From assembly GCA_963767005.1 (NCBI GenBank), contig CAVYCN010000007.1, positions 1 to 64,000 on the forward strand: a DNA stretch of 64,000 bases, given 5' to 3'. The position numbers and the translations under genes were made by a program. This document shows, in pieces, positions 1 to 34,522 of this stretch (its first letter is position 1; every line of letters begins with the position of its first letter). Source of the DNA: an uncultured Actinomycetes bacterium. Its GTDB lineage: Bacteria; Actinomycetota; Thermoleophilia; UBA2241. Below the pieces are notes generated by a model. It saw only the letters and a program-made list of their open reading frames with translations, ran no database searches and had not been told where the DNA came from.

Positions 1-3000
1 TCGGCGGCCGCCCAGTCGGGCATCTCGAGCAGGTCGGTGCGGCCGCGCAGCAGGCGGATGTCGTCGAGCAGCAGCTCGGGCTCGGCGACCGCGCCCTGCT
101 CGTCGAGCGCGCCCGACTCGCGGTTGAGCGCGTCGACCAGCACCGCCAGCTTTACCATGTTGAGCGCCGTCCAGTTGCGCATGCGGCGGCGCATGAGGCC
201 GCGGTCGTTCTGCACGGTGAGCTCCTGCTTGGTGGTGATGCCGCCGCGCGGGCAGTCGAGGTGGCAGTTGCCGCACTGCGTGCAGCCGAAGGCCGCCGCC
301 TTGCCGATCGTGCCCTCGACCAGGCCGTCGGCGCCGGCGATCAGCACCTTCAGCATGTCGAGCTCGCCGCGCAGGCCGCCCGAGGCCAGCAGACGCGTGC
401 CGCCGGCGGCGCCGTAGGCGGCGCCGTTGCCGTCGCGGATCGGCGCGAGCAGGCCCGAGCCGTCGAGGTCGACCATCTCGCCCATGAGCGCGTGGTGGGT
501 GTGCAGGATGGTACGAAACGAGTCGGGCCAGCCGACGTGAGCCGAGTCGCCGTGGTAGTTGCCCGAGCCGCCGGTGCCGGCGTCGATCAGCAGGTAGTCG
601 ACGACGAAGTTCGACCACATGCCGGCCGCCACGTAACGCGTGTAGTTGGAGCCCGTGATCTTGATGCCGCAGTAGGTGCGGTAGAGCAGCCAGAGCCAGA
701 CCTCGGCCGGCATGTCCTCGATCGAGTAGATGTCGTGCTTGGGGTCGGGCGAGAGGGCGTCGGTGCCGACCGGGATGTTGCGCGCCTTGCTCACCGTGGG
801 GGTGACCTTGGCGCCGGCCAGGCGGCCGCCCTTGCCGGGCTTGGCGCCCTGGTTGATCTTGATCTCGACGTCGCGCACGCGGCGCAGGTCGGCGCCGGTG
901 ATGCCGAAATGACCGCTCGCCGCCTGCAGGCTCTCCCAGCGCATGTCGCCGTCGGCGTCGAGACGGATCGGCCCGCCCTCGCCGGACGAGGTCATCGTAA
1001 GGCCGGCCGAGCCCTCGATGCGGGCGATCAGGTAGTCCTCGGAGGCGGCGCCGAGCGAGGTCGAGGCGTGGCAGACCGGGCCGTGCCAGACCGGCTCGCG
1101 CACGCCCGTGCCGCTCACCACAAGGCCGCCACGCGGGTCGCGCCGCACCACGACGGCGCCGTCGGCCGAGGCGCGCAGCACGGTGCGGCCGGTGGCCGGC
1201 GACACGGTGTCGCCCGCCGCGGCGGCCGGTGGCACGAGCTCGACCAGGGTGGGCTCCTCGCCGTCGACGGCGGCCCGCAGCCAGAGCGGCTCGCCGGCCT
1301 CGAGCGCCTGCTCGAGCGGGTGGCCGCGGCGCAGGTGGACGCCGACGCCGCCGCGCTCGTCGGCCTTAAGGCCGACGAGCGCGGCGGCGTCGCGGCCGGG
1401 GTGCAGGGTCACGCGTGCGCCGGGGGCGACCGCGCCGGGCCGCAGAAAGCCGCGCGGCACGGCCAGCGAGACGTAGTCGAGCAGCGCCGGGTCGCGCGAG
1501 AGGCGCTCGAGCGACCAGGCCACGGCCTCGCGCGACAGGCGCAGGCGCACGCGGTCGAGGGAGTACTCGTCGCCGTCGCCGCTCACGAAGAAGTCGTCGA
1601 GCGTCGGCGCTGAGCCGGCGGCCATCCGGTAGACGACCTCGAGGAAATCGGCGTTCAGGGCGCGGCTCGAGTTGTCGACGTGGTAGCCCGCGCCGCCGTC
1701 GGCCAGCACGCGCGCCGCAGGCGGCAGCGGCAGGCCGGGCTCGACCTCGCCCAGCAGGGCCGACACGCGGTAGCGCGCCGCCACGCCGGCCGGCGCCGGC
1801 TCGGCCGCCACGCGCACCCGGTTCTGGGCGGCGTTGGCGGCGCCGAACTCGGCGGTGGCCAGGGCGTCGACGGCGCGCACCCAGTCGGCCGTCATGGTGA
1901 TCGCCATGGCGTTGCCGGACGTCTTCTGCACGTCGTCGATGCCCATGCACGACAGAAAGTCGAGGATGCTGTGCTGCCAGCAGGTAAGCGTGCAGACCGC
2001 AAGCTCGGTGAGCTCGTCGGGGTCGGCGCGCTCGAGCGTGGCGGTGACCACTGCGCGCGCCGCGCGCTCGTCGGGACCGCCCTGCGCCGTGAGCGCGTCG
2101 ACAACGGCCGGCGCCAGCGGAATGACGGCGGCGTGCGTCATGGCGCCGCCGTTCGCGCCGAGCAGCACGCTCTCGTAGACGGTGGCCGCCGAGGCCTGCG
2201 TGTCGCCGTCGCCGCCGGCCGAGACGAGCTGCACCCGGGCGCGCAGCGCGTGCCGCTTGAGAAAGGCATCGACGCGCGGCGTGAGCCGGTACGACTTGAG
2301 CGGCCCGGCCTGATAGTGGATCAGCGCGACGCGCTCGTGACCGACCGCCGCGAGCAGGTGACGCCAGAAGGGCGCGGTGTCGGCCCCGGCGCCGGCGTCG
2401 CCGGCTCCGTCGGCAGACGGCTCCCGCTCCGCGACGGCATCGGCTGCGCCGTAGCGCAGACAGACCGACAGGAGCAGGTCGGGGTTGGCGGCGAGGGCGG
2501 CGGCGGCGAGCTCGTCGAGCTCGCCGCCGCCGCCCTCGCTCCACGGATCGAGCTCGACGACGCGTGCCGCGCGCACGAGCTCGGCGAGCCCGGGGCCGTG
2601 ACCGGGGTCGCGGTCGGCCGAGCCGGCTGCACCGCCGGCCGTGACGGCCAGCGACCCGGCGTGCCGCGGCGCCAGGCGCAGCAGGATCGAGGCGGCGTGC
2701 GGCAGCAGTGCGGACACGTGCGGGGCGGCCCGGTCGGCGTCGATCACGACGAGGCTGCGGGTGCGCAGGTCGGTCGCGGGGTCGGCCTGGGCGATGGCGC
2801 GCAGATAGGCGAGCTCCATCTCGACACCCGTCGCCCAGGGCAGCGGGCCGACCACCATGGGCAGGTCGAGACGCACGGCGTTGAGCGCGGCCAGACGCTC
2901 GTCGCTCGCGCCGTCGGCGCCGCCGCGGAACACCACGGCCGGGCGCTTGCGCACGATGTCCCAGGCCGTCGAGAACTCCTCGCGCAGGCCGTCGTTGGCC

Positions 3001-3407
3001 GGGTGCGTGATGGCCGCGTGCGAGAAGTACGAGCGGAAGTAGCCGTGGTGCCAGGCGGCGCCCATGGTGAGCGGCTCGCGCCGGAACCGTTCCTTGAGCA
3101 GCTTGTCGATGTCGAAGGCGCCGAGCTCGAGGGCCGGCACGTCGCGGCAGGGCCGGGCGTAGCCGTCGCGCAGCAGGCGGCTGCGCTGGTTGCGCGGAGC
3201 GGCCCAGAACTGGGCCTCGTCGACGCCGGCGCGGGCCAGCAGGTGCGAGAGCAGCGCCGGCGTGTCGTCGCGGCCGCCGGGCCGCGGCCGCTCGGGGTCG
3301 GCGATGTAGGCGAGCAGGTCCTCCCAGCGGGCGGTCTGCTCGGCGGTGAGGCCGTCGACCGGGTCGATGCTCACGGTCACGCCCCTGTTGTTCGTGGCGA
3401 CGCTCAC
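1..3407 (-). CDS. Glutamate-synthase-related protein (FMN-binding GltB-type domain with Fe-S motif), 3' end outside window
   Basis: Not in the ORF track because it has no stop in the window. Manual translation from GTG at 3407 (GTGA overlap with the upstream stop) reads open to the window edge and contains SSGEGG, QAASGHFG, EIKINQGAKPGKGGRLAGAKV, SPDPKHDIYSIED, ASGGLR and GCTQCGNCHLDCPRGGITT. Confidence 0.88.
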   Translation of the reverse strand, partial: MSVATNNRGVTVSIDPVDGLTAEQTARWEDLLAYIADPERPRPGGRDDTPALLSHLLARAGVDEAQFWAAPRNQRSRLLRDGYARPCRDVPALELGAFDIDKLLKERFRREPLTMGAAWHHGYFRSYFSHAAITHPANDGLREEFSTAWDIVRKRPAVVFRGGADGASDERLAALNAVRLDLPMVVGPLPWATGVEMELAYLRAIAQADPATDLRTRSLVVIDADRAAPHVSALLPHAASILLRLAPRHAGSLAVTAGGAAGSADRDPGHGPGLAELVRAARVVELDPWSEGGGGELDELAAAALAANPDLLLSVCLRYGAADAVAEREPSADGAGDAGAGADTAPFWRHLLAAVGHERVALIHYQAGPLKSYRLTPRVDAFLKRHALRARVQLVSAGGDGDTQASAATVYESVLLGANGGAMTHAAVIPLAPAVVDALTAQGGPDERAARAVVTATLERADPDELTELAVCTLTCWQHSILDFLSCMGIDDVQKTSGNAMAITMTADWVRAVDALATAEFGAANAAQNRVRVAAEPAPAGVAARYRVSALLGEVEPGLPLPPAARVLADGGAGYHVDNSSRALNADFLEVVYRMAAGSAPTLDDFFVSGDGDEYSLDRVRLRLSREAVAWSLERLSRDPALLDYVSLAVPRGFLRPGAVAPGARVTLHPGRDAAALVGLKADERGGVGVHLRRGHPLEQALEAGEPLWLRAAVDGEEPTLVELVPPAAAAGDTVSPATGRTVLRASADGAVVVRRDPRGGLVVSGTGVREPVWHGPVCHASTSLGAASEDYLIARIEGSAGLTMTSSGEGGPIRLDADGDMRWESLQAASGHFGITGADLRRVRDVEIKINQGAKPGKGGRLAGAKVTPTVSKARNIPVGTDALSPDPKHDIYSIEDMPAEVWLWLLYRTYCGIKITGSNYTRYVAAGMWSNFVVDYLLIDAGTGGSGNYHGDSAHVGWPDSFRTILHTHHALMGEMVDLDGSGLLAPIRDGNGAAYGAAGGTRLLASGGLRGELDMLKVLIAGADGLVEGTIGKAAAFGCTQCGNCHLDCPRGGITTKQELTVQNDRGLMRRRMRNWTALNMVKLAVLVDALNRESGALDEQGAVAEPELLLDDIRLLRGRTDLLEMPDWAAA

Positions 3408-6124
3408 GCCTCGGTCCTCCCCGTAGCGCCGGCCCGGTCGAACTCGCCGAGCGCGGCGAGCCACTGGGCGGCCGGCGCCTCGACCACGCGCAGCGTCTGG
3501 CCGCCGTTGTCGCGGTTGGCCGGGCAGACCTCGACGCAGGTGCCACAGCCCACGCAGTCGGCCTGCTCGGTCGTGATCAGGCGCAGGTCGTCGGCCTCGA
3601 ACTCGCGGTTGGCGCCCGACGGGCAGACGGCCACGCAGGCGGCGCAGTGCCGGCACGTCGCGGCAGCGCCGTCGGCCGTCTCGGCGCGCAGCACCAGGTA
3701 CGACACGCGACCCGACACCGATGCCGGCACCCGGCGCAGGTACTCGCCGGGGCGCAGCTCCAGGAACGTGCGCCGGTAGTGCGGCGAGCGGCGCAGGGCG
3801 GCGAGCGTAGCGCGCCGCGCCTCGCGCGTCTCGTTTGACTGCCCGTCGCCGCAGGCCCCGCCGGCGCGCAGCTCCTCGAGCGCGCCGTAGGTCTCGAGGT
3901 GCGCGATGCCGGCCTGGCACACCTGCTCGCAGGAGCCGCAGCGCACGCACAGGTCGAGCAGCGCGCCGACCCGCGCCGGCACCCGGCCGCGGCGGCCGGC
4001 CGTCTCGGCCGAGTGCACGAGGGTCTGGGGCAGGCGCAGGGCGGCCGCGTCGTAGACCGGGCACACGCCGTTGCACTCGCCGCAGTTCACGCAGTGTAGC
4101 GGGCGCGACAGCACCGGTGTGGCGGCGGGCCGGCGCACCGGCGCACCGCGCCGGTGCGCCGGCCCGGGCGCCAGGCGCATCGCGGCCTTGGTGAGGCGCA
4201 CCGCGGCATCGAGGCCCGGCGTGCGCCAGGCCAGCCCGGCCAGGCGCACGCCCGGCCGATAGACCTCGGCGACCAGGCGGCCCGGCAGGCCGCGCAGCTC
4301 AAAGCCGAGCAGCACGCCGCGGCCGAGCAGACGAGCCGGGTCGAGCGCCGCCTTCACGGCGTTCAGGCGGGCGAGACCGTCGTCGCCGAACTTGTCGCGG
4401 GCGAAGGCGCCCTGCCAGCGTCCGAGCACGTAGGGCCGCCCGCCGTGGCGAGTGACGGCCAGGTCGAGCAGGGCCGGGGTGAGCGCCAGGTCGAGCAGAA
4501 AGCCGAGCGTGCGGTGGTCGGTCAGGTAGCCGGCGATCGCCAGGGCGCGGCCGCCGCGCAGGTAGTAGATCTCGTGCTCGAGCCCCACGCCGGCGCCGCC
4601 GGCCAGGCGCTCAGCGTCGGCGACGAAGGCCGCGACGCGGTCGGCCGGCAGGTCGATCTCGGCGGCCAGCAGCCCGGGGCCGATGCGCTTGGTGCGCTGC
4701 GGCCTGAATCGGGCGGCGGCGAAGGCGACGCTTTCGTCGGGCAGCACCACCGGCGCGCCCGGCAGGTCGGCCAGACGAGCGGCAAAGCGCCGCGCCTGCG
4801 CCGTGTCGAGGAAGTCGACGTAGAGGTAGGCGCCGTAGTGCCGGTCGGCCGAGGACGACCCCGTGGCGTGGGCCCGGGCGCGTGGCCCGCCGCCGTCACC
4901 GCCGTGGGAGCCGGAGCGGCCGTCGGTGGCGCCCGACCCGGCGCCGCCGTTCCCGTTTGCATCCAGCTCGCGCGGCCCGACGATGCGCTCCCAGGGCATG
5001 TCGGCGTCGGTCGACAGCGCCGCCGGGAAGCGTCGCCATGCCTGGCGGGCGTCGTCGGCGTCGGCCAGAGCGGCGTGCGCCATGTGGCTGCCCGAGACGA
5101 CCTCGAGGTTGGCCGGCCGCGGCAGGTCGACGCCGGCGGCCTGGGCCACGAATGCGGCGGCGGCCAGGGCGCGTTCCAGGTCGGCGAAGCCGAGCAGGAA
5201 CGCGCCGATCTCGGGCCGCCGCCCCACCGCCACCACAAGCTGCGTGATCACTCCGAGCGTGCCCTCGCTGCCCGCCAGGTCGGCCAAACCGAACGGCGGC
5301 AGGCCGCGCTCGGCAAACCAGGCCTCGGCCTGGTCGGCGGCGACTTCGCGGTGGCCGTGGGTACGCTCGCGTGCGGCGACGTCGAGGCGGCCGTCGGCGT
5401 GGAACCGCACGAGCTCGCCGCCCGGCAGCACGACGTCGGCGGCGCGCACGATGTCGAGCACGCGGCCTGGGCCGAAGGCGTTCAGGCCGGCGCCGCCGGT
5501 GGCGAACCAGCCGGCCAGTGTGGCGCCGAGGTTCGAGGGGTAGACCGGCAGCGCCAGGCCGCGGCGCGCCAGCGCACGATGCACGGCGCGCAGCCGCGCG
5601 CCGGCGCCCACCACGCAGACCTCGCCGGCCGGGTCGATCTCGGCCTTGTCGAGGCGCGCCAGGTCGAGCACCAGGCCGCCGTCGCCGGGCACGGCACCGC
5701 CGAGCGCCGCCGAGGCGGCGCCGCGCACCGTGACAGGCGTCACGGTCTCGTGCGCCCAGCGCAGCGCCTCGACGACCTCCATCGTGTCCTCGGGCAGAAA
5801 GACCAGGTCGGGGACGGCGTCTGTGAGAAAGCGGGTGAAGAGGCGCCCCAGGTAGACGTTCTGGTCGCGGTCGGCCTCGGCCAGCAGCAGCGGGTCGACG
5901 ACGAGGCGCGCCTCGCAGGCAGCCTCGTGACTGCCGTCGCAGAGGCCGGCGCGCCGCAGGTGCGAGGCGAGCGACTGCGCGAAGCGCCGCGAGCGCTCGC
6001 CGGTCGGCCGCTCGGCGAGCGACGGACCGCCGGTCAGCGCGCGGTAGAGCGGCGTCAGGCCGTCTGGATGGGGCGTCTCGAAGGGGAGCGCGCTTGGGGG
6101 GAGCTGAGAAGCCCGGACGGTCAC
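3404..6124 (-). CDS. FAD-binding oxidoreductase (GlcD/FAD_binding_4-like) fused to four 4Fe-4S motifs
   Basis: PDLVFLP..VTVRGAAS..GGAVP..GGLVLDL and GSEGTLGVIT motifs; C-terminal CVNCGECNGVCP, CVRCGSCEQVC, CRHCAACVAVCP, CVGCGTCVEVCP. Confidence 0.88.
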   Translation of the reverse strand: MTVRASQLPPSALPFETPHPDGLTPLYRALTGGPSLAERPTGERSRRFAQSLASHLRRAGLCDGSHEAACEARLVVDPLLLAEADRDQNVYLGRLFTRFLTDAVPDLVFLPEDTMEVVEALRWAHETVTPVTVRGAASAALGGAVPGDGGLVLDLARLDKAEIDPAGEVCVVGAGARLRAVHRALARRGLALPVYPSNLGATLAGWFATGGAGLNAFGPGRVLDIVRAADVVLPGGELVRFHADGRLDVAARERTHGHREVAADQAEAWFAERGLPPFGLADLAGSEGTLGVITQLVVAVGRRPEIGAFLLGFADLERALAAAAFVAQAAGVDLPRPANLEVVSGSHMAHAALADADDARQAWRRFPAALSTDADMPWERIVGPRELDANGNGGAGSGATDGRSGSHGGDGGGPRARAHATGSSSADRHYGAYLYVDFLDTAQARRFAARLADLPGAPVVLPDESVAFAAARFRPQRTKRIGPGLLAAEIDLPADRVAAFVADAERLAGGAGVGLEHEIYYLRGGRALAIAGYLTDHRTLGFLLDLALTPALLDLAVTRHGGRPYVLGRWQGAFARDKFGDDGLARLNAVKAALDPARLLGRGVLLGFELRGLPGRLVAEVYRPGVRLAGLAWRTPGLDAAVRLTKAAMRLAPGPAHRRGAPVRRPAATPVLSRPLHCVNCGECNGVCPVYDAAALRLPQTLVHSAETAGRRGRVPARVGALLDLCVRCGSCEQVCQAGIAHLETYGALEELRAGGACGDGQSNETREARRATLAALRRSPHYRRTFLELRPGEYLRRVPASVSGRVSYLVLRAETADGAAATCRHCAACVAVCPSGANREFEADDLRLITTEQADCVGCGTCVEVCPANRDNGGQTLRVVEAPAAQWLAALGEFDRAGATGRTEA

Positions 6125-6265
6125 CAGGTACCGTGTCCGGGTTTGAGCATGCCGCCGCTACGGCCGCAGGCTGACCTTCGTCTCAGAACGCACCGCGCTT
6201 TCGTCGTCGTCTGCGTTTGTTGCGAACGATCTGCGGTCGCCGGACCAGTGGTCCGACCGCCTCGA

Positions 6266-6294
6266 ATTCTGTCGTGGCCGGCGGTCCAAGTCAA
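6266..6294 (-). promoter_or_regulatory. Putative sigma70-type promoter of the oxidoreductase operon
   Basis: Minus strand TTGACT-N17-CAGAAT, about 140 bp upstream of the 6124 start. Confidence 0.5.
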
Positions 6295-6415
6295 ACCGGC
6301 CTGGGGATAGGAGGTAGCGCGCTGGGAAACGCGCCCCCGCCGTGGCAATGGAGTTGACCCGCTTCCGTTGACACCCTGAAAGTGGACACCACCGGTGTCC
6401 GAGAAGGGAGTCAGC

Positions 6416-6685
6416 GTGGCGTACACGCCGGAGTCCGACATCCTGCCCTTTGCCCGACGACATGACCGCGACGATGTGGCGGGGTTCGTTGTCGAGGAAG
6501 GCCGCATGACGTCACGGGTCGTGACCGCTCACCTGACGTGGTCAAGGAGCCCGGAGCGCAGTCGATTCCCCACCTTGGAGCGCTTTGCCGACCTCTGGTC
6601 TTGGTTGAAAATGGCGATCGAAGAGTCAACCGAGTGGTGCTCAGAGGACGAGCTGAAGCGGCTGCGTGAAAGAGATTCGGGGTGA
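6416..6685 (+). CDS. Hypothetical protein, possibly N-terminally truncated immunity-like protein
   Basis: GTG after AAGGGAG; globular sequence with FARRHDRDDVA...HLTWS...FP pattern. Confidence 0.55.
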   Translation: MAYTPESDILPFARRHDRDDVAGFVVEEGRMTSRVVTAHLTWSRSPERSRFPTLERFADLWSWLKMAIEESTEWCSEDELKRLRERDSG

Positions 6686-6791
6686 TTCTCTGGCGGCCGG
6701 TCGGCATCCACGAACTAGTCCTGATCTTCGAGGCCGACATGATGGCCTTCCCGCCGCGCCTTGCCGGCCAGCCGATCCGACGGCCGCACCC

Positions 6792-7076
6792 ATGAGCGAC
6801 CGTCTGCCTGTTGGCACCCTTGTATCGGCGGAGGTAGTTGGGCACGAGAGGTGGGGCGTGCTGGTATGCCTGTTAGGGCCGCGCCATGGCGCGGACGCAG
6901 TGATCGATGTCATGTACGTGACGGAGAAGCGGCCCTTCGAACCTTTCGCTGACTACCCGCCCCTAGGGAGTCGTGTTCAAGCGGTCGTAATGCCTTATCC
7001 GCCAAGTGGGCAGCTTCGCCTGAGCACTCGTCACGCCGACGTGAGTGAGGCGCTGAAGAAGGCCATCCGGCGCTGA
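6792..7076 (+). CDS. Small S1/OB-fold-like protein
   Basis: LPVGTLVSAEVVGHERWGVLV...YPPLGSRVQAVV...QLRLS fits an S1-domain pattern. Confidence 0.6.
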   Translation: MSDRLPVGTLVSAEVVGHERWGVLVCLLGPRHGADAVIDVMYVTEKRPFEPFADYPPLGSRVQAVVMPYPPSGQLRLSTRHADVSEALKKAIRR

Positions 7077-7409
7077 GGCAACAAGGCGCACCCGCCCGCC
7101 GACCCCCCCGCACCCGTCACTCTGATGACGTCCCGGCGGACAGGCGAGCCGACGCGTAGCGGCGGCGAGCCGGGGGCCATCGCCAGCCGATGCAACGCAA
7201 TGGCTCACTTTTCTCTCGCCTATCTCCTATCCCGTCAAACCGGCCTCAGCCGCCGCTCGGCCCGTAGCCTGCAGCGGTCGGACGCCATGTTCAGGACGCG
7301 GGCGGAGTTCGGCCGAACGCCCGCGGACAGGGTCTGTCCCTGGCGCGCCCAACGGGGCTTGTCGTACGCTTGCCCCTGCAGCGTCGATGGCCGAACGGAT
7401 GGGGGGCAC

Positions 7410-8687
7410 GTGAGCGACTTGGCCGGCATACAGGCGCCACACAGCGCTGAGGACACGCGAGGCGGAGCAGCGAAGGAGGCCCTGCTGCCCGGCCTCGGGG
7501 CCGGCGCCGCGACCTTCCTGGGAAGCGGCCTCGTCCTCTTGCTGCTCGGCTTCATCCCCTCGCAGGCGAGCCACGGGCTGTTCGGGGTCCGGTACGCGCG
7601 CCCCTTGTCCGGCTGGGTTTCCGGCGCCTTCCTGGGGCCGTTCTGGGGCTCCAACGCGTCGCACCCGGTGGGCGAGCAGATCGTGACGGTGCGCTCCCTG
7701 GGCATGACCTTCGGGGCGCTGCTCGTCTTTGCGGCCGTCCTCTGGCTCGTCGGACGGGTCGCGTGCCGCCACGTGCCGCCAGGCCTGCGGCAGCGGGGCG
7801 CCGTGCTGCTCGTGACGGCCCTCGTCGTCGCCGCCGGCGCAGCCGTGACCGCGATCGCTCTATCGCACGGCTCGGCCATGAGCTACGGTGCGCTCTCGAA
7901 CTCCACCGGCGCCTTCGTCGCCACGCTGCTGCTGGGAGCCTTCTGCTTCGGCGTCGTGGGGCTGCTCCCACAGCCCTGGAGCGCCGCGCTCCGCCGCGCC
8001 GGCATCCTCGTAGGCGCCTGCTTTCTGGCCGGCGGACTGCTCTTCCCCACCTTTGTCGTGTCGGACGGCCTGCCCAACGCGAACGTCGGCCAGGACTTCG
8101 CGGCCGCCTGCCCGTTCTCGAGCGCCGTCGGCGGCCTGGTCCTGCCGCTCGCCCTGCAGGCGCCCGTGTCGCTGACGCAGACCTACGGCACGCCGTGGCA
8201 GAGCCGGCAGGCCGCGTGGCCGCACTGGTACAGACTGGCGCAGTCGACGATCCTCCATCCCCACGAACGCCTCTTTCAGCACGCCTCCAGCCTCGGGGTG
8301 AACGGCTCGCTCGTGGGCGCGGCGCTCACCGCCGCCGTGCTCTGCGCCCTCGTGCTCATCTCGTGGGGGCTGTGTCGCAAGGCGGGCGCCCGTGGCGCAC
8401 GACACGGCCTGCACGTCGGGCTGGTCGAGGGTACGAGCGTCGCCGCGCTCCTCGTGCCAGTACTGTGGCTCTCGAGCAACTTCATCGAGATCGGCACGGG
8501 GGAGTACAGCTCGGCGCTCTCGACCTACTGGGGGATCACGGCCATCGGACTGGCTCAGAGCCTGGCGACCATCGTCGTCGTGTGCAGTCTCACCGGGTGG
8601 CTCTACGGCGCCAGGCAGGCCCGGCGCGCAGGGGCGTCGGGCGACGCCCACGCGCTGCAGATCGCCCCGCCGCAGCGGCTCCCCTAG
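7410..8687 (+). CDS. Multi-pass membrane protein, function unknown
   Basis: About 9-10 hydrophobic segments; GTG at 7410 after a G-rich RBS; genome-like codon usage. Confidence 0.7.
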   Translation: MSDLAGIQAPHSAEDTRGGAAKEALLPGLGAGAATFLGSGLVLLLLGFIPSQASHGLFGVRYARPLSGWVSGAFLGPFWGSNASHPVGEQIVTVRSLGMTFGALLVFAAVLWLVGRVACRHVPPGLRQRGAVLLVTALVVAAGAAVTAIALSHGSAMSYGALSNSTGAFVATLLLGAFCFGVVGLLPQPWSAALRRAGILVGACFLAGGLLFPTFVVSDGLPNANVGQDFAAACPFSSAVGGLVLPLALQAPVSLTQTYGTPWQSRQAAWPHWYRLAQSTILHPHERLFQHASSLGVNGSLVGAALTAAVLCALVLISWGLCRKAGARGARHGLHVGLVEGTSVAALLVPVLWLSSNFIEIGTGEYSSALSTYWGITAIGLAQSLATIVVVCSLTGWLYGARQARRAGASGDAHALQIAPPQRLP

Positions 8688-9782
8688 TCAGGGCTTCCAC
8701 GTCGCTCCGCCGTCGGTCGTGCGCAGAACGACGCTGCCGTCGAACCCGGATGCGTCGGTTGAGTGGAAGTGGTTGCCGACCACGAGGCCGTGCCGAGAGT
8801 CGGCAAAGGCGATGTCCGCAAGATACGCGGTCGTGCCGGAACGCTCCGCCCTCCAGGTGCGGCCGCCGTCGGTCGTGGCGATGATCGTGCCGCCGGGCCC
8901 GATCACCCAGCCGTGCAGGGCGTCGGCGAAGGCGACGCCGTTGTAGCCCGCCAACCGATCCGACACATACTGCACGCCCCAGGTCGTGCCGCCGTCGCCG
9001 GTGGCGAGGACGATGCCGCCGTCGTCACCCCAGCCGACCACCCAGGCGTGCGATGCCCCTGCGCAGGCGACGCCGGTGAGCACGGTCGGCTCGCCGGGAT
9101 ACGGCTGCCGCTGCCAGTGGGCGCCGCCGTCCGAGGTCGCGACGATGCCGGCGTCCCCGACGGCCCAGCCATGGCGAGCGTCGGCGAAGGCGACGCTCGA
9201 CAAGTCTCCGGCCTTCGCTGCGTACTGGCGCGTCCACGTCGCCCCGCCGTCCGCGGTGGCGATGATGACGCCACCCTTGTCGCCGACGCCGCCCACCGCC
9301 CAGGCGTGCGTCGCGTTCGCGCAGGTGATGTCCTCGAGGGTGCACCTCGTGCGCACGGCCTGCTGCGCCCAGGTGACTCCGCCGTCGGTCGTGGCAAGCA
9401 CCGCGTCGTCGTCGCTCGACTGCGAATCGCCGGTCTGCCGGGGGGTGCACACGGCCCAGCCGCGCCTGGCGTCCGCGAAGGCGATCTCATCGGGGTCCCA
9501 GCGCGTCGCGAAGGGCTGCGCTCCCCAGGCGAGCCCACCGTCGGTGGTGGCATCGACAACGCCTTCGTCAGTCCGGTCGGTGTCGCCCGCCACCCAGGCG
9601 TGGTCGAGGTCGGAAAAGGCGACGGACGCGAGCGCGACGGTCGTGCTGAAGTAGTGGGGAGCCTCGGCGGCGTGCCAGATGAGACCGGCCAGGGCGACGG
9701 CGAGCACCACCCCCGCGAGGGCGTACAGTCGCCTGCGCCGAGACGGCGCGGCGGTGGGCACGTTCGCCTGCTCCTCCGACAA
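8688..9782 (-). CDS. Exported YCF48-like/BNR-repeat beta-propeller protein
   Basis: N-terminal TM/signal; repeated ATTDGGxTW and FADAxHGW; AGGAGG RBS before TTG. Confidence 0.85.
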   Translation of the reverse strand: MSEEQANVPTAAPSRRRRLYALAGVVLAVALAGLIWHAAEAPHYFSTTVALASVAFSDLDHAWVAGDTDRTDEGVVDATTDGGLAWGAQPFATRWDPDEIAFADARRGWAVCTPRQTGDSQSSDDDAVLATTDGGVTWAQQAVRTRCTLEDITCANATHAWAVGGVGDKGGVIIATADGGATWTRQYAAKAGDLSSVAFADARHGWAVGDAGIVATSDGGAHWQRQPYPGEPTVLTGVACAGASHAWVVGWGDDGGIVLATGDGGTTWGVQYVSDRLAGYNGVAFADALHGWVIGPGGTIIATTDGGRTWRAERSGTTAYLADIAFADSRHGLVVGNHFHSTDASGFDGSVVLRTTDGGATWKP

Positions 9783-10050
9783 ACGGCCTCCTTTGCCCGA
9801 CGGCAGGAGGGGCGTCGCCCTCAGGTCAGCGTATGACCTTCATCATAGCCCACGGTGCGGCCGGCGTCAGGCTCGCGACGACGTTCGCTAGACCCGCAGG
9901 TCGCGGCGCAGGCCGGACGCCCGCATCCACAGGAGCAGCCCCACGAGAGCGGGGGCCGACACGGCGAAGACCGCGGCGACGATCGACAGGGCGGCGTTTC
10001 GTGACCGGTTGTCGGCAGCCCGCAGGTCGTGCTTGACGTAGTATCGCGCC

Positions 10051-10773
10051 ATGCACCCCGCCGACAACGCCACCCCGCACGCCTCCGCCGACTACGACGC
10101 GCAGGTCCGCAAGACCATCCCGTGCTACGACGCGTTCCACGAGGAGACGATCCGCCTGGTAGCCGCGCGCCAGCCGCAGCCGGCCGCCTGGCTCGACACC
10201 GGCGCCGGCACGGGAGCGCTCGTCGAGCAGGCCTACGACCGGTTCCCCGCGACCAGGTTCTTCGTGGCCGACCCGGCAGAGGCGATGCTCGCCCAGGCGC
10301 GGACCAGGCTCTCGGGCAAGGAGCGGGTCACGATCATGGAGCCGGTCGGCTCCCAGCACCTCGAGGTGGGCTCGCAGCACGTCGCCGTCGGCTCGCAGCA
10401 CGTCGAGCCGCCCGAGCCGTTCGACGTGATCACGGCGATCCAGGCGCACCATTATCTGCAGCCGCCCGAAAGGGCGGCGGCGGTCCGCAACTGCCACGCC
10501 CTCCTGCGGCCCGGCGGCCTGTTCGTCACCTTCGAGAACGTCAGGCCGGCCACTCCAGAGGGGGTCGAGCTCGCCAGGCGCATGTGGGCCGACTTCCAGG
10601 CCGGGCAGGGCAGGGGCGCCGCCGAGGTGGAGCGCCAACTGGCGCGCTTCGACGTCGAGTACTTTCCGCTGACTGTGCAGCAGCACCTCGACCTGCTCGC
10701 CGAGTGCGGCTTTGCGGTCGTCGAGCTGTTCTGGTACTCGGTGATGCAGGCCGGGTTCTGGGCCGTCAGGTAG
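10051..10773 (+). CDS. Class I SAM-dependent methyltransferase (CmoA-like)
   Basis: YDAQVRKTIPCY, WLDTGAGTG, FDVITAIQAHH, LLRPGG. Confidence 0.85.
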   Translation: MHPADNATPHASADYDAQVRKTIPCYDAFHEETIRLVAARQPQPAAWLDTGAGTGALVEQAYDRFPATRFFVADPAEAMLAQARTRLSGKERVTIMEPVGSQHLEVGSQHVAVGSQHVEPPEPFDVITAIQAHHYLQPPERAAAVRNCHALLRPGGLFVTFENVRPATPEGVELARRMWADFQAGQGRGAAEVERQLARFDVEYFPLTVQQHLDLLAECGFAVVELFWYSVMQAGFWAVR

Positions 10774-10967
10774 CCGGCCCAGAGAGCGGGCCGGCCGAGG
10801 CTCAGGGCCGTCGGCGTCAGCCAGATGTCCGGATGGCGGCCTGGGGCACCCGCAGCGACTCCACCATCCGGGCCACGAGCCCTGCGGACCGGTAGATGGC
10901 GTAGTCGTGCTCGGGGAACTCCATCTCTGCTTGCGCGTGGCCGGCCGCACCTGCACCCATCGCCTCG

Positions 10968-10995
10968 TCAAGTCCCCGTCCCTCGGCGCCGATAC
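10968..10995 (+). promoter_or_regulatory. FliA/WhiG (sigma28)-like promoter
   Basis: TCAA-N16-GCCGATAC upstream of the 11138 gene. Confidence 0.5.
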
Positions 10996-11137
10996 CGGTG
11001 TCATCGCCAGCGACGCGGTCACCGGAGCCGTGAGCCCATGCACAAGCGCGACCCCGGGCGGGGAAGGCGGATGCGCTACCGCCGCCCACCTGCATCTGGG
11101 CGCTCTCGCTTCGTCCGACCGCAACGAGGGAGGATGC

Positions 11138-11998
11138 GTGCGTGTCGCCACGTTCGGGCCGAGCACCGCGTGGGTGGGGGTCGGCATCGAGTACGACGGC
11201 CGTCAGTTCCTGCTCGAAGGCTACGGCCCTGTGCCGCCCGAGGCCCTCCTCGACTACGACCGCCTGGGCCAGATCGACTGGGCCTACGCGGGACTGCGCG
11301 AGTGGGTGCAGACCCTGGCTGCCCAAGGCTCTGCCGCGCAGTGGAGCGATACGCAGAGCCGCGGCGGCTTCTCGCGACCGGCGTTCCAGACGGCGCCGTC
11401 GCGATCGCGCATCCCGTCGTGGGCCATCGTGCTGATCGTCCTGGTCGCCCTGGCTCCGGTCGCGGCGGCCGTCGCCATACCGATGGCCCTGGCGCACCGT
11501 GCCGGCGGCAAAACGGTGACCGGCCCCTACAACGTGAAGCCGGGACAGTTCACGATCGATCTCCGCAGCGACCCCGGCGACTTCGTCGGCGGCGGCCGCA
11601 CCTACCACTTCACGCAGTCCAACTCAAGCGTGACCGTCACCGCGACCGGGGGTCACCTGGCGATCGTACTGCACGAGGCACACGGCCCCGCGACCGACAG
11701 CTGGTGGGACGGCGACTTCGTCGAGCCGGTGCGCCTGCCCGTGCTCATGAGGGGGACCTACACCGGCCTGCAACGGTATCCCTTCAACGACGCGGCGCAG
11801 GGGGGTCTCGACTGGTCCGGCGAGGGTCGCGGCTCGAACGACCTCACCGGATGGTTCGCCATCGACAAGGTCTCCTACGACAGCGACGGCAGGCTGTCGG
11901 CCATCACCCTTCGGTTCGAGCAGCACAGCGAGAACGCCGGGCCCGCTCTCCACGGCGAGATCGCGTGGGCGCGGGCGGTCCAGACGGCTAGCCCTTGA
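11138..11998 (+). CDS. Single-pass membrane protein with extracellular beta-rich domain
   Basis: GTG after GAGGGAGGA; TM segment WAIVLIVLVALAPVAAAVAIPM; C-terminal S/T/G/D-rich domain. Confidence 0.7.
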   Translation: MRVATFGPSTAWVGVGIEYDGRQFLLEGYGPVPPEALLDYDRLGQIDWAYAGLREWVQTLAAQGSAAQWSDTQSRGGFSRPAFQTAPSRSRIPSWAIVLIVLVALAPVAAAVAIPMALAHRAGGKTVTGPYNVKPGQFTIDLRSDPGDFVGGGRTYHFTQSNSSVTVTATGGHLAIVLHEAHGPATDSWWDGDFVEPVRLPVLMRGTYTGLQRYPFNDAAQGGLDWSGEGRGSNDLTGWFAIDKVSYDSDGRLSAITLRFEQHSENAGPALHGEIAWARAVQTASP

Positions 11999-12008
11999 TG
12001 TCTTCGGT

Positions 12009-13625
12009 CTAGGCCCGTGCGCGGGAGCCCGACTCGACCAGGATCTGCAGGACCTCAAGCTCGTCGTGGTCGAACCAGTGCAGGCCGCAGGCGGTACACC
12101 GGTCGACCGGAACGGGGTACAGCAGCGACCAGGGGCCCCGGCTCATGGGGGCGTGGCACCGCGGGCAGGTGAGCGGCCACTGTCTCGCGCCGGTGTCGGG
12201 CAGACCGGTCGTGGCTGCGGCCACCGCGGCGGGAGCCTTTCGTCCGGCGTAGCCCGCCGCGCGACGCCTGAGCTCGGCCGCGATGCCGCTGGCCTGGCGC
12301 TTCTCGGTCGCCGTGAACCCCATCTCGCGTCGGGCGAGGATCGTCTCGACCTGGTCGTGGTCGAGGGCGCGCCCGCCGCAGGCCGGGCAGGCCCTGATCG
12401 TCGTGCCTTCGTAGGCCACGGGGCGCAGCACGGCGCCGCATGCGGGGCAGTCGTGGCTCGCTGCGGCCGCGCTCGTCGGGGCGCCGCCCACTACCAGGCC
12501 GGCAGCACCCGGCGGCGTGGCCAGGTGCTCGCGCGCGAGCCTGCGCACCGCGAGCTCGCGCGCCGGCGCACTCGGATCGCTGCTCCTCGTGTGCGCCAGA
12601 GCACGGAGGCGTTCGATACGAGCGCTGAGCGGCGGGTGCGAGGAAAACCAGGTCGAGACACCCCGCCGACCCGGGTCGGGCGGGCGGATGGCGAGCGACG
12701 ACAGCTCCGGCGGGACGGTGGTCGTCGTCTTTGCTGCGTCTTGTATCTCGAGCAGCGCGTCGGCCAGGCTCAGCGGGTCACGAGTCAGGCGCGCCGCCGT
12801 GGCGTCGGCCGCGTACTCCCGCTGTCGCGAGACCGCCAGGTTCACGACCCAGCCGCCGCACAAGACCAGCGTGAGCAGGAGCCAGGCGACGAACTCGGGC
12901 ACCACGGAGATCAGGAACAGCACGACCAGGGGCAGCGCGAACGCGCCGGACTGGTCGACGGCGTCGAACTCGAACTCGGCGGTCTTCACGAGCGTGCGAC
13001 GAGCCCGGCCGATACCCGCGAACAGCAGGCAGACGCGCGTGGCGGTGACGCAGTCGCGTGAGGCGATGTGGGCGATCTCGTGGGCCACCACGCCCTGGAA
13101 CTCCTCGCGCGAGAGCCGTCCGAGCGCGCCGTCGGTAACCCCCACGCAGTCGAGGCCCTGCGGGTCGGCGAACGAGAACGCGTCGATGCCGGGCACGGGG
13201 ACGACCACGCAGGCGAGCTCAGGCAGGCCGGCGGCGAGGCGCAGCTCGTCGACGACGTGGCGGAATCGCAGATGGTACGGATCGCGGGGATCGAGCTCCA
13301 CAGCGTTCAGCGCGGCGCGCAGGCGGTCGCCGCCGCGGTGCTGCGAGACGATCCAGGCAGAGGCGGCCAGCACCAGCGCCAGGATGCCGCTCATGGCGAC
13401 GACGCCCTGCAGCGTCTCGAGGCTGACTGACACGCTGCCTGCGGTCAGGTCACGCCAGACGAGCTCGACGACGAGGCTGAGCGGCATCAGACCCACCCAG
13501 ATGGCGACGGCGAGCAGCCCGAAGAGCGCCCAGACCCGCCACCGGGCCTCGCGTTCGACCTCGAACACCGACCTCGCCGGGCGCACCTCCACGCCGTGCC
13601 CGGCCGCCGTGCGTGTCGCCAGCAC
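12009..13625 (-). CDS. M48 (HtpX-like) zinc metalloprotease with two C-terminal zinc-ribbon (zf-TFIIB-like) domains
   Basis: GVVAHEIAH, SRQREYAAD, SSHPPLSARI; CPAC..CPAC and CPRC..CTACGLHWFD. Confidence 0.85.
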   Translation of the reverse strand: MLATRTAAGHGVEVRPARSVFEVEREARWRVWALFGLLAVAIWVGLMPLSLVVELVWRDLTAGSVSVSLETLQGVVAMSGILALVLAASAWIVSQHRGGDRLRAALNAVELDPRDPYHLRFRHVVDELRLAAGLPELACVVVPVPGIDAFSFADPQGLDCVGVTDGALGRLSREEFQGVVAHEIAHIASRDCVTATRVCLLFAGIGRARRTLVKTAEFEFDAVDQSGAFALPLVVLFLISVVPEFVAWLLLTLVLCGGWVVNLAVSRQREYAADATAARLTRDPLSLADALLEIQDAAKTTTTVPPELSSLAIRPPDPGRRGVSTWFSSHPPLSARIERLRALAHTRSSDPSAPARELAVRRLAREHLATPPGAAGLVVGGAPTSAAAASHDCPACGAVLRPVAYEGTTIRACPACGGRALDHDQVETILARREMGFTATEKRQASGIAAELRRRAAGYAGRKAPAAVAAATTGLPDTGARQWPLTCPRCHAPMSRGPWSLLYPVPVDRCTACGLHWFDHDELEVLQILVESGSRARA

Positions 13626-13664
13626 ACCACCTCGCCGCAGGAGCAGACAATACCCTCGGCAGTA

Positions 13665-13692
13665 CTATCGGTAGATCAGGAGCGTCGCCTGA
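13665..13692 (-). promoter_or_regulatory. FliA/WhiG-like promoter
   Basis: Minus strand TCAG-N16-ACCGATAG upstream of the M48 gene. Confidence 0.4.
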
Positions 13693-13804
13693 GCCGTGTC
13701 GGCCAAAGCGGCTCGCGGGGGCAGAGACGTCTGGCCCCGGCGCCCGACTTCGGCGACGGGGCCGGGGTGACCGTCACAGGCCCGCCAGCGGACCCGGTGG
13801 TACG

Positions 13805-16438: not shown

Positions 16439-16579
16439 CTCATCGGCCGCTAACGGGCCAGCCTCCGCCGGGCCGCCCGTCGCTGCGACCGGCGACGCGC
16501 GGCCCGGCCACGCAAACGAACCGCTGACACTTCTGCGGTAAGATATTTGTTCGGCAACCCTGCGACCGGAGAGTCTCGC

Positions 16580-18874
16580 ATGCCCACCCGATCTCGTTCG
16601 ACCACTTCCGGCGGCGGGGACGGCGGGCCGCGGCCCGCCGTCCCCGCCGCCGACGCCGCCCCCGCACCCGACGCCGCGCCTGCGCCCGGCGCGGCCGCCG
16701 CGCCCGACGCCGCTGCCGCGCCCGATGCCCCTGCCGCGCCCGACGTCGAAGCCGCCGTCGACCTCTGCGACGCCGCGCTCTACATCAATCGCGAGCTCAG
16801 CATGCTGGCGTTCCAGCGCCGCGTGCTCGAAGAGGCCCAGGACGAGCGCAACCCGCTGATCGAGCGCGTCAAGTTCCTGTCGATCCTGGGTTCGAATCTG
16901 GGCGAGTTCTTCATGGTGCGCGTCGCCGGCCTGCGCCAGCAGGTCGAGGCCGGCGTGGCCGACCTGTCGGCCGACGGCATGACCCCGGCCGAGCAGCTCG
17001 TCGCCTGCCGCGACCTCGCCTACCAGCTCATGCGCGACGCGCGCGAGACCTGGGCTCAGATCCTGCCGCAGCTCACCGCGGCCGGGGTCCACATCCACGA
17101 CTTCGTCGGGCTCGACGAAAGCCAGCGCGAGGCGGCCTGCGCCTATTTCGACCGCAGCGCGTTCCCGGTGCTGACGCCGCTGGCGTTCGACCCCGGCCGG
17201 CCGTTCCCGCACATCTCCAACCTGAGCCTCAACCTGGCGGTGCTGCTGCGCGACGAGGGCGGCCATCAGCTCTTCGCCCGCGTCAAGGTGCCCTCGACCC
17301 TGCCCCGCATGGTGCCGGTGCCGGCGCCGGCCGACGTGCCGGGCACGGCCCGCGCCCGGCGCTACGACTTCGTCTGGCTCGAGCAGCTCATCGCCGCCAA
17401 CCTCGACGAGCTGTTCCCCGGCATGACGATCGTCGGCGTCTACGCCTTCCGCGTGACACGCGACGCCGAGATGTCGATCCAGGAGCTCGAGGCCGACGAC
17501 CTGCTCGAGACGATCGAGGAGGGCATCCTGCGCCGGCGCTTCGGCTCGGTCGTGCGGCTCACGGTCGACACGGCCACGCCCGACGACGTGCGCGCCATCC
17601 TGCTCGACAACCTCGACCTCGAGCCCGAGGGCCTGATCGCCGTCGATCCGCCGCTCGGCATGAGCGGCATCAACCTGCTCGGCCTCGACCGGCCCGACCT
17701 CAAAGACGCGCCCTTCGTGCCGGCCGTGCCGCGCGGCCTGGGCGACCCCGACCTGTCGGTGTTCGCCGCGATCCGCAAGCACGACATCCTCATCCACCGG
17801 CCCTACGATTCGTTCGAGCCGGTGATCGACTGGCTCGAGAGCGCCGCGCACGACCCCGACGTGCTCGCCATCAAGATGACGCTGTACCGCGTGGGCCGCA
17901 ACGCGCCGGCGGTCAACGCCCTGCTCGAGGCGGCCCGCAACGGCAAAGAGGTCGCCGTCCTCGTCGAGCTCAAGGCGCGCTTCGACGAGGAGCCGAACAT
18001 CGAGTGGGCGAGGGCGCTCGAAGACGAGGGCGTGCACGTGGTCTACGGCCTGGTCGGCATCAAGACGCACTCCAAGATCGGCATGGTCGTGCGCCGCGAG
18101 GGCGACGGCATCCGCCGCTACGTGCACCTCGGCACCGGCAACTACAACGTGGTCACGGCGCGCCTCTACACCGACCTCGACCTGTTCACCTGCGACCCCG
18201 TGATCGGCCAGGACGCGACCGAGCTCTTCAACTTCCTGACCGGCTTCTCGCGCTCACGCGACTACCAGAAGCTGATGGTCGGACCGATCAACCTGCGCGA
18301 GCGCTTCGAGGCGCTGCTCGAGCGCGAGATCGAGCACCAGCGGGCCGGCCGCGGCGGCCACCTGTTCTTCAAGATGAACTCGCTGATCGACCGCAAGATG
18401 ATCGCCCTGCTCTACCGCGCCTCGCAGGCCGGCGTGCAGGTCGACCTGCTGGTGCGCGGCATGTGCTCGCTGCGCCCCGGTATCCCCGGCGTGAGCGACA
18501 ACATCAGGGTGACGAGCATCGTCGGCCGGTTCCTCGAGCACAGCCGCATCTACTGGTTCCGCAACGGCGGCGACGAGCAGGTCCTGGTGGGCTCGGCCGA
18601 CCTCATGCCGCGCAACCTCAACCGTCGCGTCGAGGTGCTCTTCCCCGTCGAGGACCCGGCCATCGTGCGCCGGCTGCGCGACGAGATCCTCGACGTGTAC
18701 TGGCGCGACAACGTGAAGGCCAGATACATGCAGGCCGACGGCACCTACGTGCACGCGTCGCCGGCCGAAGGCGAGGAGCCGCTCGAAAGCCAGGCCTGGT
18801 TCATCCGGCACGCCGCCGATCGCGCGCCGCGCGACTCGGGGCGCCGCGCCAAGCGGCGCCCCGCCGGTCGCTAG
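16580..18874 (+). CDS. ppk1: Polyphosphate kinase 1
   Basis: YINRELS, EFFMVRVAGL, HRPYDSF, IKMTLYR, VELKARFDEE, HLGTGNYN, GRFLEHSR. Confidence 0.97.
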   Translation: MPTRSRSTTSGGGDGGPRPAVPAADAAPAPDAAPAPGAAAAPDAAAAPDAPAAPDVEAAVDLCDAALYINRELSMLAFQRRVLEEAQDERNPLIERVKFLSILGSNLGEFFMVRVAGLRQQVEAGVADLSADGMTPAEQLVACRDLAYQLMRDARETWAQILPQLTAAGVHIHDFVGLDESQREAACAYFDRSAFPVLTPLAFDPGRPFPHISNLSLNLAVLLRDEGGHQLFARVKVPSTLPRMVPVPAPADVPGTARARRYDFVWLEQLIAANLDELFPGMTIVGVYAFRVTRDAEMSIQELEADDLLETIEEGILRRRFGSVVRLTVDTATPDDVRAILLDNLDLEPEGLIAVDPPLGMSGINLLGLDRPDLKDAPFVPAVPRGLGDPDLSVFAAIRKHDILIHRPYDSFEPVIDWLESAAHDPDVLAIKMTLYRVGRNAPAVNALLEAARNGKEVAVLVELKARFDEEPNIEWARALEDEGVHVVYGLVGIKTHSKIGMVVRREGDGIRRYVHLGTGNYNVVTARLYTDLDLFTCDPVIGQDATELFNFLTGFSRSRDYQKLMVGPINLRERFEALLEREIEHQRAGRGGHLFFKMNSLIDRKMIALLYRASQAGVQVDLLVRGMCSLRPGIPGVSDNIRVTSIVGRFLEHSRIYWFRNGGDEQVLVGSADLMPRNLNRRVEVLFPVEDPAIVRRLRDEILDVYWRDNVKARYMQADGTYVHASPAEGEEPLESQAWFIRHAADRAPRDSGRRAKRRPAGR

Positions 18875-34521: not shown

Positions 34522-34522
34522 G

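Follow-up and report, generated by a model that had tools for sequence, protein, structure and literature searches.

The known glutamate synthases obtain their electrons from GltD (NAD(P)H), from ferredoxin or, putatively, from F420 subunits, according to PMC8097209 and PMC3448663. In the case of GltB, a chain of ~1,500 residues is arranged in the order glutamine amidotransferase (GATase) domain, central domain, flavin mononucleotide (FMN) domain and GXGXG domain, the catalytic cysteine follows a short leader and becomes the N-terminus of the mature chain, and the partner GltD is adrenodoxin-reductase-like. A different layout is encoded at the start of a 64,000-nucleotide window, the whole stretch of DNA analysed here, which comprises the first 64 kb of contig C7 (CAVYCN010000007.1) in the 3.4-Mb genome (~72% GC) of an uncultured Actinomycetes bacterium (Thermoleophilia; UBA2241). 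Here, a gene for a flavoprotein (P0002) with a predicted flavin adenine dinucleotide (FAD) site and four predicted Fe-S clusters is followed by the 5' half of a giant gene for a GltB-like protein (P0001). At a probability of roughly 0.7, supported by motifs and models, this pair would form a two-subunit glutamine-dependent glutamate synthase, cut at an internal Ser–Cys bond and receiving electrons via its FAD/4x[4Fe-4S] neighbour. The system is real, conserved and uncharacterised, and it is a variant of glutamate synthase, not a new kind of system.

Compared with GltB/GltD (A. brasilense 1EA0, 2VDC, 6S6S; B. subtilis 7MFM) and ferredoxin-GltS (Synechocystis 1OFD), the giant shares all four domain types in the same predicted three-dimensional placement. 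Its FMN-site motifs are like those of GltB, its (E/D)HDS–C junction resembles the EHDAC of GltB, and in both a second barrel lies beside the FMN barrel. However, the giant runs in one open reading frame (ORF) from barrel 1 through the FMN barrel, a linker of 21–67 residues, the (E/D)HDS–C GATase and a helical linker to GXGXG, an order found in 60 of the 60 loci that show both the FMN and the GATase parts; its cysteine lies ~1,110 residues inside a chain of ~2,150–2,350 residues, its cluster motif has four cysteines instead of three, and its barrel 1 is modelled with eight strands where GltB has a truncated central domain. The partner is a flavoprotein of the VAO/PCMH type, unrelated to GltD. 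The archaeal-type split glutamate synthases, including the putative F420-dependent FGltS(I/II), likewise utilize a non-GltD Fe-S electron-input subunit, but this subunit is FrhB/Fsr-N-like (PMC3448663), and ten archaeal-type GltB2 barrels form a separate clade in a quick FMN-barrel tree. A further relative is an operon, termed split below, in which barrel 1 with its Fe-S domain, the FMN barrel and the GATase with GXGXG are three separate genes. No description of the giant layout, the internal cysteine, the FAD_binding_4 partner or the split operon was found in full-text literature searches, for which subscription journals were mostly outside the scope, and the accessible parts of PMC5736913, bioRxiv 2021.09.25.461819 and PMC13759103 do not describe the giant layout.

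Both ORFs lie on the minus strand, from 6124 to 3404 (906 residues, P0002) and from 3407 to 3 (1,135 residues, P0001), and the GTGA overlap named in the initial annotation is confirmed, with GGAGGA 7 nt upstream of the P0001 start. P0001 meets no stop before the contig end, the window starting at base 1 of C7. The initial annotation took the protein for a GltB without a GATase; this absence is an assembly artefact, and the second half of the gene is missing from the window because C7 ends into a gap of about 4 kb before contig C16. In a same-genus genome (G011), whose protein is 92% identical, the frame passes the C7 end point and proceeds via DHDSCRVG, HHRYPTN, GAHPF, HNGE and TDTE to a GXGXG-like end. 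At the DNA level, the 167 bases that open C7 match G011, whose sequence extends for ~4.0 kb without a match in the source assembly before it reaches the C16 end (93.5% over 9.5 kb). Furthermore, the last 25 residues of a 99%-identical database protein (P0003) are the +1-frame reading of the DHDSCRVGSLA site of G011; the source organism's own gene therefore most likely continues into the GATase, P0003 being by the same sequence evidence another assembly of nearly the same organism that enters the GATase with a frameshift. Within the source genome, tblastn with three longer relatives matched C7 only, the second half being found nowhere else in it, and blastn with the first 300 bases of the contig revealed no overlapping contig end.

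The same continuity is observed across 65 GTDB loci, all in metagenome-assembled genomes (MAGs) of Thermoleophilia, Eisenbacteria, Krumholzibacteria, Planctomycetota, Latescibacterota and a few otherwise titled bins. FMN and GATase parts are both visible in 60 of these loci, always FMN then GATase, and the two marker motifs lie within one stop-free frame in 54 of the 59 loci showing both; the five exceptions carry frame changes, four of them at several places. Same-family relatives have open frames of 2,200–2,400 codons, and 140 clusters match the C-terminal (GATase) half. An artefactual fusion of separate genes is rejected by these frames, and a GltB using a separate GATase is rejected by the in-frame relative, the bridging of the gap to C16, the P0003 tail and the stop-free frames together. 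The contigs of four sequencing runs on the locus of a relative are short, none of those listed spans the FMN–GATase junction, and they are uninformative; no RNA run is among the sequencing runs listed. One Thermoleophilia MAG carries two operon copies (L083, L077), one of them heavily frameshifted; a long-read error, a pseudogene or bin contamination may account for this.

The features of a class-II GATase, of the N-terminal nucleophile (Ntn) type, are found in the relatives only, beyond the window. Behind a low-complexity linker of variable length, 109 of 110 full-length proteins have DSCR, and DSCRV, NRGGG, HHRYPTN, GAHPF, HNGE and TDTE are invariant in 88/88 aligned rows of this half; they presumably represent the nucleophile, the glutamine-binding and the oxyanion residues. 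In a model of a relative's C-terminal half (P0177; 88-row alignment, predicted local distance difference test (pLDDT) 82.9, predicted template-modelling score (pTM) 0.89), residues 15..1047 align to 1EA0 1..1472 with Z 19.6 over 579 residues at 3.8 Å, and the range against GltB crystal structures is Z 19.6–21.0 at 3.6–3.8 Å. All structure models used here are predictions that may lean on known GltB structures. In the model, the internal cysteine, residue 15, falls on Cys1 of GltB and on residue 1 or 2 of other Ntn GATases, and the GATase and the C-terminal GXGXG beta-helix, aligned up to GltB residue 1472, are placed relative to each other as is usual in GltB, with a helical domain between them; the beta-helix family PF01493 is weak in giants (E 0.001, 1 of 11 proteins). 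The GATase assignment thus draws on motifs, models and the match to the split-type GATase (E 6e-25).

Class-II GATases need their catalytic cysteine at the N-terminus, and the exchange C1A abolishes the activity of B. subtilis GltAB (bioRxiv 2021.04.12.439528). From this requirement and the invariant DS–C after a variable linker, the giant is probably cleaved just before the catalytic cysteine into two chains. Such a cut would produce a redox chain of ~1,110 residues and an amidotransferase chain of ~1,040 residues, which would stay together in the normal GltB shape, with the linker acting as a propeptide. Glutamine would be hydrolysed by the GATase, the ammonia would tunnel to 2-oxoglutarate at the FMN, and FMNH2 would reduce the imine to glutamate; motifs and gene context suggest the overall reaction glutamine + 2-oxoglutarate + 2e- -> 2 glutamate. 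The electrons would pass from the donor to the FAD, through the four [4Fe-4S] clusters and the four-Cys cluster, and onward to the FMN, while barrel 1 would act as a non-catalytic scaffold like the central domain.

The catalytic barrel itself lies within the window. The canonical FMN-domain motifs noted at the outset in the C-terminal part of P0001 are present, the best Glu_synthase (PF01645) stretch covering residues 776–975 (E 2.5e-43). The GEGG, GAKPG and SIEDL-type motifs of the GltB-like FMN (beta/alpha)8 synthase domain align to A. brasilense GltB (1EA0/2VDC) and are invariant in 89/89 rows; we take them to form the 2-oxoglutarate/FMN site. The accompanying cluster motif is likewise present, its form being a four-Cys CxxCxxCxxxC in 43/43 aligned giant FMN barrels and not the three-Cys [3Fe-4S] motif. 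Against NCBIfam GltB NF008730, P0001 scores 88 bits vs a cut-off of 1047. In its model (89-row alignment, pLDDT 78.8, pTM 0.82), residues 90..1133 align as a unit to the central and FMN domains of 1EA0 (451..1182) with Z 21.1 over 557 residues at 5.3 Å. A beta-rich insertion (~665–766) is confidently modelled and sequence-variable, with no family match, no separate search having been made for it.

On the electron-input side, the FAD/Fe-S gene stands upstream on the same strand in 48/48 loci that reach that far (17 of the 65 do not), so the pair is conserved, and an FAD enzyme occupies the gene position expected of GltD or ferredoxin, as had been proposed. No GltD-like gene is conserved co-directionally in 47 clustered giant loci. 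The description of the partner as a GlcD-like flavoprotein with four CxxCxxCxxxC motifs and no GEHGxG also holds: P0002 matches FAD_binding_4 (E 9.8e-30) and, weakly, FAD-oxidase_C, each of its 16 cluster cysteines is kept in at least 116 of 117 homologues, and GEHG is absent from 117/117. These two families make up the fold of the FAD/metal D-2-hydroxyacid dehydrogenases (LctD 7QH2, mouse LDHD 8JDB, GlcD, D2HGDH), and a broad profile ranks LctD (E 5e-48, full length), mouse LDHD and a glycolate oxidase closest among solved structures, with E values from 5e-48 to 4e-43. P0002 shares with them the carboxylate-binding arginine (Arg347 = R472), but it carries four appended Fe-S motifs, is in fixed linkage to glutamate synthase, and lacks the His/His/Glu metal ligands and the catalytic histidine (HxxxxxxH, GEHG). 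His398, His405, Glu442 and His443, each essential in LDHD (PMC10589216), give way to Tyr, Ala, a gap and Tyr (Tyr520 in 116/117, Ala527 in 114/117 and Tyr565 in 116/117 homologues); the GEHG site is also lost in 39 sequences spanning split and fused forms. The glcD NCBIfam score is 71 vs a cut-off of 568. With its metal-site residues lost, P0002 is therefore not a metal-dependent 2-hydroxyacid dehydrogenase. An ordinary GlcD/lactate dehydrogenase standing beside the giant by chance is rejected by the 48/48 pairing, the fusions described below and the lost metal site.

The donor is the weakest step of the proposed mechanism. Members of the VAO family such as MurB and DHCR24 use NADPH, and the lactate/pyruvate couple lies at about -190 mV. 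The FMN of A. brasilense GltS has a midpoint of -240 mV (PMC8097209), which suits NAD(P)H better than a lactate/pyruvate donor, and NAD(P)H also suits the partner because it needs no base. NAD(P)H or another free hydride carrier is the tentative choice, at somewhat less than even odds, while a small organic acid oxidised without a metal is doubtful, and something else again is doubtful as well. Weighing on the other side, the retained carboxylate-binding arginine and the invariant tyrosine at the base position fit an organic acid as well as NAD(P)H. In the ESM Atlas, the nearest clusters to the FAD domain are auto-named FAD-linked oxidases (Bacillota, Thermoplasmatota) and give no substrate clue, and a model of the complex between both barrels and the ferredoxin domain at the end of the partner scored 0.00, which speaks neither for nor against binding.

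The N-terminal half of P0001 had been proposed to hold a second barrel, a degenerate form of the FMN barrel. The GltB-like remnants quoted for it are present, and residues ~97–508 do model as a triose-phosphate isomerase (TIM)-type barrel with eight strands (DSSP), which alone aligns to FMN-dependent hydroxyacid oxidase barrels with Z 20.7 over 268 residues at 3.8 Å and which the model places in the central-domain position of GltB. Of the Glu_synthase matches expected in both halves, that in the C-terminal barrel was obtained and that in the N-terminal half was not; PF04898 (central domain) has no hit in the giant. No cluster cysteines occur in barrel 1 of 40/40 giants, and the barrel would be non-catalytic. 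In direct profile–profile comparison, giant barrel 1 vs the FMN barrel of the same family gives E 0.42, which is not significant; its profile vs four canonical GltB gives E 0.049 at best, falling on the FMN barrel, and a PDB sequence search with it yields no real hit. With profiles of 17 canonical, 60 split and 40 giant rows, a chain of matches leads through the split type: giant barrel 1 matches split-type barrel 1 at E 8e-18 and the split-type FMN barrel at E 6e-6, and the E values of split-type barrel 1 are 1e-42 against its own FMN barrel and 2e-13 against the canonical one. Against the canonical central domain, barrel 1 reaches E 0.048 (giant) and E 0.0025 (split type). This chain therefore supports giant barrel 1 as a duplicate of the FMN barrel, visible only through intermediate relatives.

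Against 1.84 billion representatives, the barrel-1 profile matched 105 proteins, and the 17 distant matches examined (E 9e-12 to 9e-4) are ferredoxin + barrel proteins of ~470 residues and fusions, none of them a canonical GltB. A phylum-wide search with a barrel-1 alignment (A8) matched 141 of 401 genomes, four strongly, mostly through ordinary GltB2, and is excluded from the counts, and two genomes flagged as unpublished support none of the claims made here; a plasmid search gave two weak hits. A second, truncated barrel, the central domain, also exists in ordinary GltB, for which a 2021 review (PMC8097209, section 6.1) leaves duplication vs independent origin open; two barrels are for this reason not a novelty in themselves, and what is new is the position of the catalytic cysteine inside the chain, the order of the domains and the identity of the partner. 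Since split barrel 1 matches its own FMN barrel so closely and giant barrel 1 stands at the central-domain position, such a duplication can fill the central-domain role; that the same event lies behind the central domain of canonical GltB is not shown by these profiles and models.

A metagenome scan with the distant barrel-1 proteins covered 80 of at least 562 loci (L100–L179), of which the 47 of at least 7 kb were analysed. Genes for barrel 1, the FMN barrel and the GATase(+GXGXG) follow the domain order of the giant in 42 of the 47, and the other five have no GATase gene detected in the available stretch. Upstream stands a module of FAD-oxidase + Fe-S, of the same FAD subfamily as that of the giant, in 21 loci, or of MvhD, often with MetV/MetF, in 20; none has both, and neither is in view in six. 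glnA occurs in 13 of the 47. The split FMN barrel matches that of the giant at E 2e-33 and also bears a four-Cys cluster motif, but its spacing is CxxCxxCxxxxxC vs CxxCxxCxxxC, the residues at the catalytic site are Cys-Gly vs Cys-Arg, and the ferredoxin domain that ends the giant's FAD partner starts the split barrel-1 subunit. Among 40 split GATase subunits examined, a leader precedes the (E)EGG–CGV site, mostly of about 30–38 residues from the nearest Met; leader removal therefore looks native in these subunits as judged from their sequences. Some split operons (L107, L123, L155) have a Glu_synthase-like protein of ~540 residues upstream (weak PF01645, E 8.5e-9; cluster c22).

Fused forms also exist: FAD - FeS - barrel 1 proteins of ~1,200 residues in Chloroflexota, barrel 1-FMN, barrel 1-FMN-GATase-GXGXG in Brocadiae, and a single chain of 3,016 residues (P0363) with FAD, barrel 1, FMN, GATase-like and GXGXG parts. 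The whole-system fusions P0363, P0381 and P0373 (KSB1 and Brocadiae among the sources) bear internal Cys motifs of their own and are possibly independent fusion events. The giant appears to have arisen by fusion of the three-gene operon of anaerobes. Weighing against this descent, the quick FMN-barrel tree, with 10 of 43 giant rows, places the giants as a clade outside the split-type clade, so the tree does not confirm it.

The carrier genomes bear on what the system is for. In the source genome, which has two glutamine synthetases and two glutamate dehydrogenase (GDH)-family genes, the giant is the sole Glu_synthase-type gene found, apart from a weak unrelated hit. Among 61 genomes of the host family, 27 carry the giant, 22 of them without another Glu_synthase gene found and five with one, and 18 of the 61 have neither; in 50 carriers across several phyla, a sample that overlaps the host-family set, 41 have only the giant as a Glu_synthase-type gene, eight also have another, and one shows no match at threshold. 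In 5 of 48 loci, the FAD gene and the giant are separated by a type III glutamine synthetase gene. Several results, however, count against the glutamine-dependent synthase as proposed, and one group of them is physiological: searches with PF00120 and then PF12437 detected no glutamine synthetase in 24 of the 50 carriers, for which completeness is not given; 21 of the 24 are among the 40 carriers outside Thermoleophilia, and one (L040/G469) bears the title of a chromosome. A Glu/Leu/Phe/Val-dehydrogenase-family gene is present in 48 of the 50. An assimilatory role is therefore not universal; carriers without glutamine synthetase leave the chemistry intact and weaken only this universal role. 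The same counts would accord with a system whose glutamate synthase parts serve mainly catabolism, either with peptide glutamine as substrate and electron sink or in reverse, from glutamate to 2-oxoglutarate and ammonia, with the FAD subunit reducing a 2-oxoacid. That subunit does have LctD, LDHD and glycolate oxidase as its nearest structures and keeps the Arg347 equivalent, and at the couple potential assumed here, 2-oxoacid reduction would be downhill from an FMN at -240 mV (PMC8097209). Yet this catabolic use is unlikely: the invariant GATase motifs would be needless for a pure glutamate oxidase, the FAD subunit lacks the base and the metal ligands on which LDHD depends, glutamine synthetase genes occur within the operons or next to them, and 23 of the 27 family carriers have a glutamine synthetase match, one of them only a fragment. 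Its first form, moreover, has the same chemistry as the favoured glutamine-dependent synthase and differs only in physiology.

The other group of adverse results concerns divergence. Pfam and NCBIfam fail to recognise the GATase half, the giant GATase profile vs the canonical GltB GATase gives E 0.01, no match, and E 0.29 vs four canonical GltB, a PDB sequence search with this profile has no real hit, the residue after the catalytic cysteine is Arg where the split and canonical forms have Gly, and the active-site loops of the P0001 model have pLDDT < 50. N-methylglutamate synthase is built from GltB-like parts, and in its manner the giant could be an amidotransferase/amine oxidoreductase for another amide donor or 2-oxoacid acceptor. 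The unrecognised GATase, the Cys-Arg in place of Cys-Gly, the extra insertions, the FMN-barrel branch length of 4.1 and the second Glu_synthase-type gene kept in 5/27 family and 8/50 wider carriers would all accord with a changed substrate, but the motifs that presumably form the glutamine site and the 2-oxoglutarate/FMN site are invariant, and no genes of a methylamine pathway or another one are conserved in the neighbourhood, glutamine synthetase being the only recurrent nitrogen neighbour; such an enzyme is improbable. The depth of the cysteine in the chain and the atypical Arg after it also raise the case in which this residue is never freed, the GATase is structural, and free ammonia aminates 2-oxoglutarate as in a flavin-dependent glutamate dehydrogenase, which would explain the carriers without glutamine synthetase. 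Against this, the cysteine and the preceding DS persist in 109/110 proteins behind a linker that varies from 21 to 67 residues, and other fusions keep a Cys motif at the same FMN–GATase junction (ELDACGVV in P0363, GQSNCGVA in P0373), which makes an unprocessed chain very improbable.

Table 1. Coordinates in the window of the gene pair and of its predicted parts
Feature	Position	Strand	Basis or remark
P0001 gene, 5' half (1,135 codons) of a rearranged glutamate-synthase large-subunit gene of ~2,300 codons, open at the contig end	1..3407	-	
FMN/synthase barrel core, residues 776-1130; invariant GEGG, QGAKPG, R876, SIED, GIK, SGG	18..1082	-	
Four-Cys motif CxxCxxCxxxC (C1042-C1052), which may hold a [4Fe-4S] cluster where [3Fe-4S] is usual	252..284	-	
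Beta-rich insertion, residues ~665-766, ahead of the FMN-barrel catalytic core	1110..1415	-	secondary structure of the model
Barrel 1, residues ~97-508, degenerate, with eight strands and no cluster cysteines, placed like the GltB central domain	1884..3119	-	model and profiles
GTGA start/stop overlap (3404-3407) and ribosome-binding site GGAGGA (3415-3420)	3404..3420	-	
P0002 gene for a 906-residue flavoprotein of the FAD_binding_4 type (VAO/PCMH family) with four [4Fe-4S] clusters predicted and a putative role in electron input	3404..6124	-	GTG start at 6124 predicted
Second 4Fe-4S dicluster motif pair, C824-C834 and C857-C867	3524..3655	-	ferredoxin domain of the same position starts the barrel-1 subunit in split operons
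First 4Fe-4S dicluster motif pair, C678-C688 and C726-C736	3917..4093	-	
Cap/substrate domain, about residues 305-603	4316..5212	-	R472 at the LDHD Arg347 position; Tyr520, Ala527 and Tyr565 for His398, His405 and His443; gap at Glu442
FAD-binding domain core, residues 105-241	5402..5812	-	PF01565 (FAD_binding_4) E 9.8e-30

Around the gene pair, the window contains a P-type ATPase gene (13613-16438, +); its match (51%) in 11 related loci is an ATPase gene that stands divergently and immediately ahead of the FAD gene. In the source genome, ~7.5 kb of other genes (6124-13600: methyltransferase-like, M48 peptidase and membrane proteins) separate the two, which suggests an insertion. At the other end, an operon for a NuoF-like/pyridine-nucleotide Fe-S oxidoreductase and a 2-oxoacid:ferredoxin oxidoreductase converges on the 3' end of the giant gene in 11 Thermoleophilia loci (downstream in L033, L035 and L082), and its counterpart in the source genome (G000) is located at C16 53109-62601. 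Further into the window, at 29710-37385 (+), a frame of 1,603 codons carries HdrA-like and GltD/NfnB-like Pfam domains, presumably in the layout called HdrL-type, and the genes after it encode MvhD, probably MetV, MetF and an Fe-S dicluster protein. The MvhD/MetV/MetF genes resemble the alternative upstream module of the split operons; ~24 kb separate them from the giant gene, with which they may have no connection. The cluster of polyphosphate kinase, CYTH-CHAD and Ppx/GppA genes at 16454-23364 is ordinary.

The internal catalytic cysteine is more surprising than the duplicated barrel or the FAD partner, and an Ntn nucleophile 1,100 residues inside a chain offers a clean test case for GltB-type maturation. 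Tentatively, with slightly less than an even chance, the system constitutes a distinct class of glutamate synthase, made as a polyprotein that is cut into redox and amidotransferase chains, with a metal-free VAO-family driver whose donor would be new to glutamate synthases and with an eight-stranded copy of the FMN barrel at the central-domain position. If this is true, the giant and the split operons would form a living series for the origin of the central domain by barrel duplication, and in carriers without glutamine synthetase the giant may serve glutamine catabolism. Because Pfam sees only the FMN barrel of the giants, genome annotations miss or mislabel this nitrogen step. Meanwhile, the VAO/PCMH-type input subunit would represent a further solution to electron input in glutamate synthases, in lineages of wetland, peat, soil and digesters.

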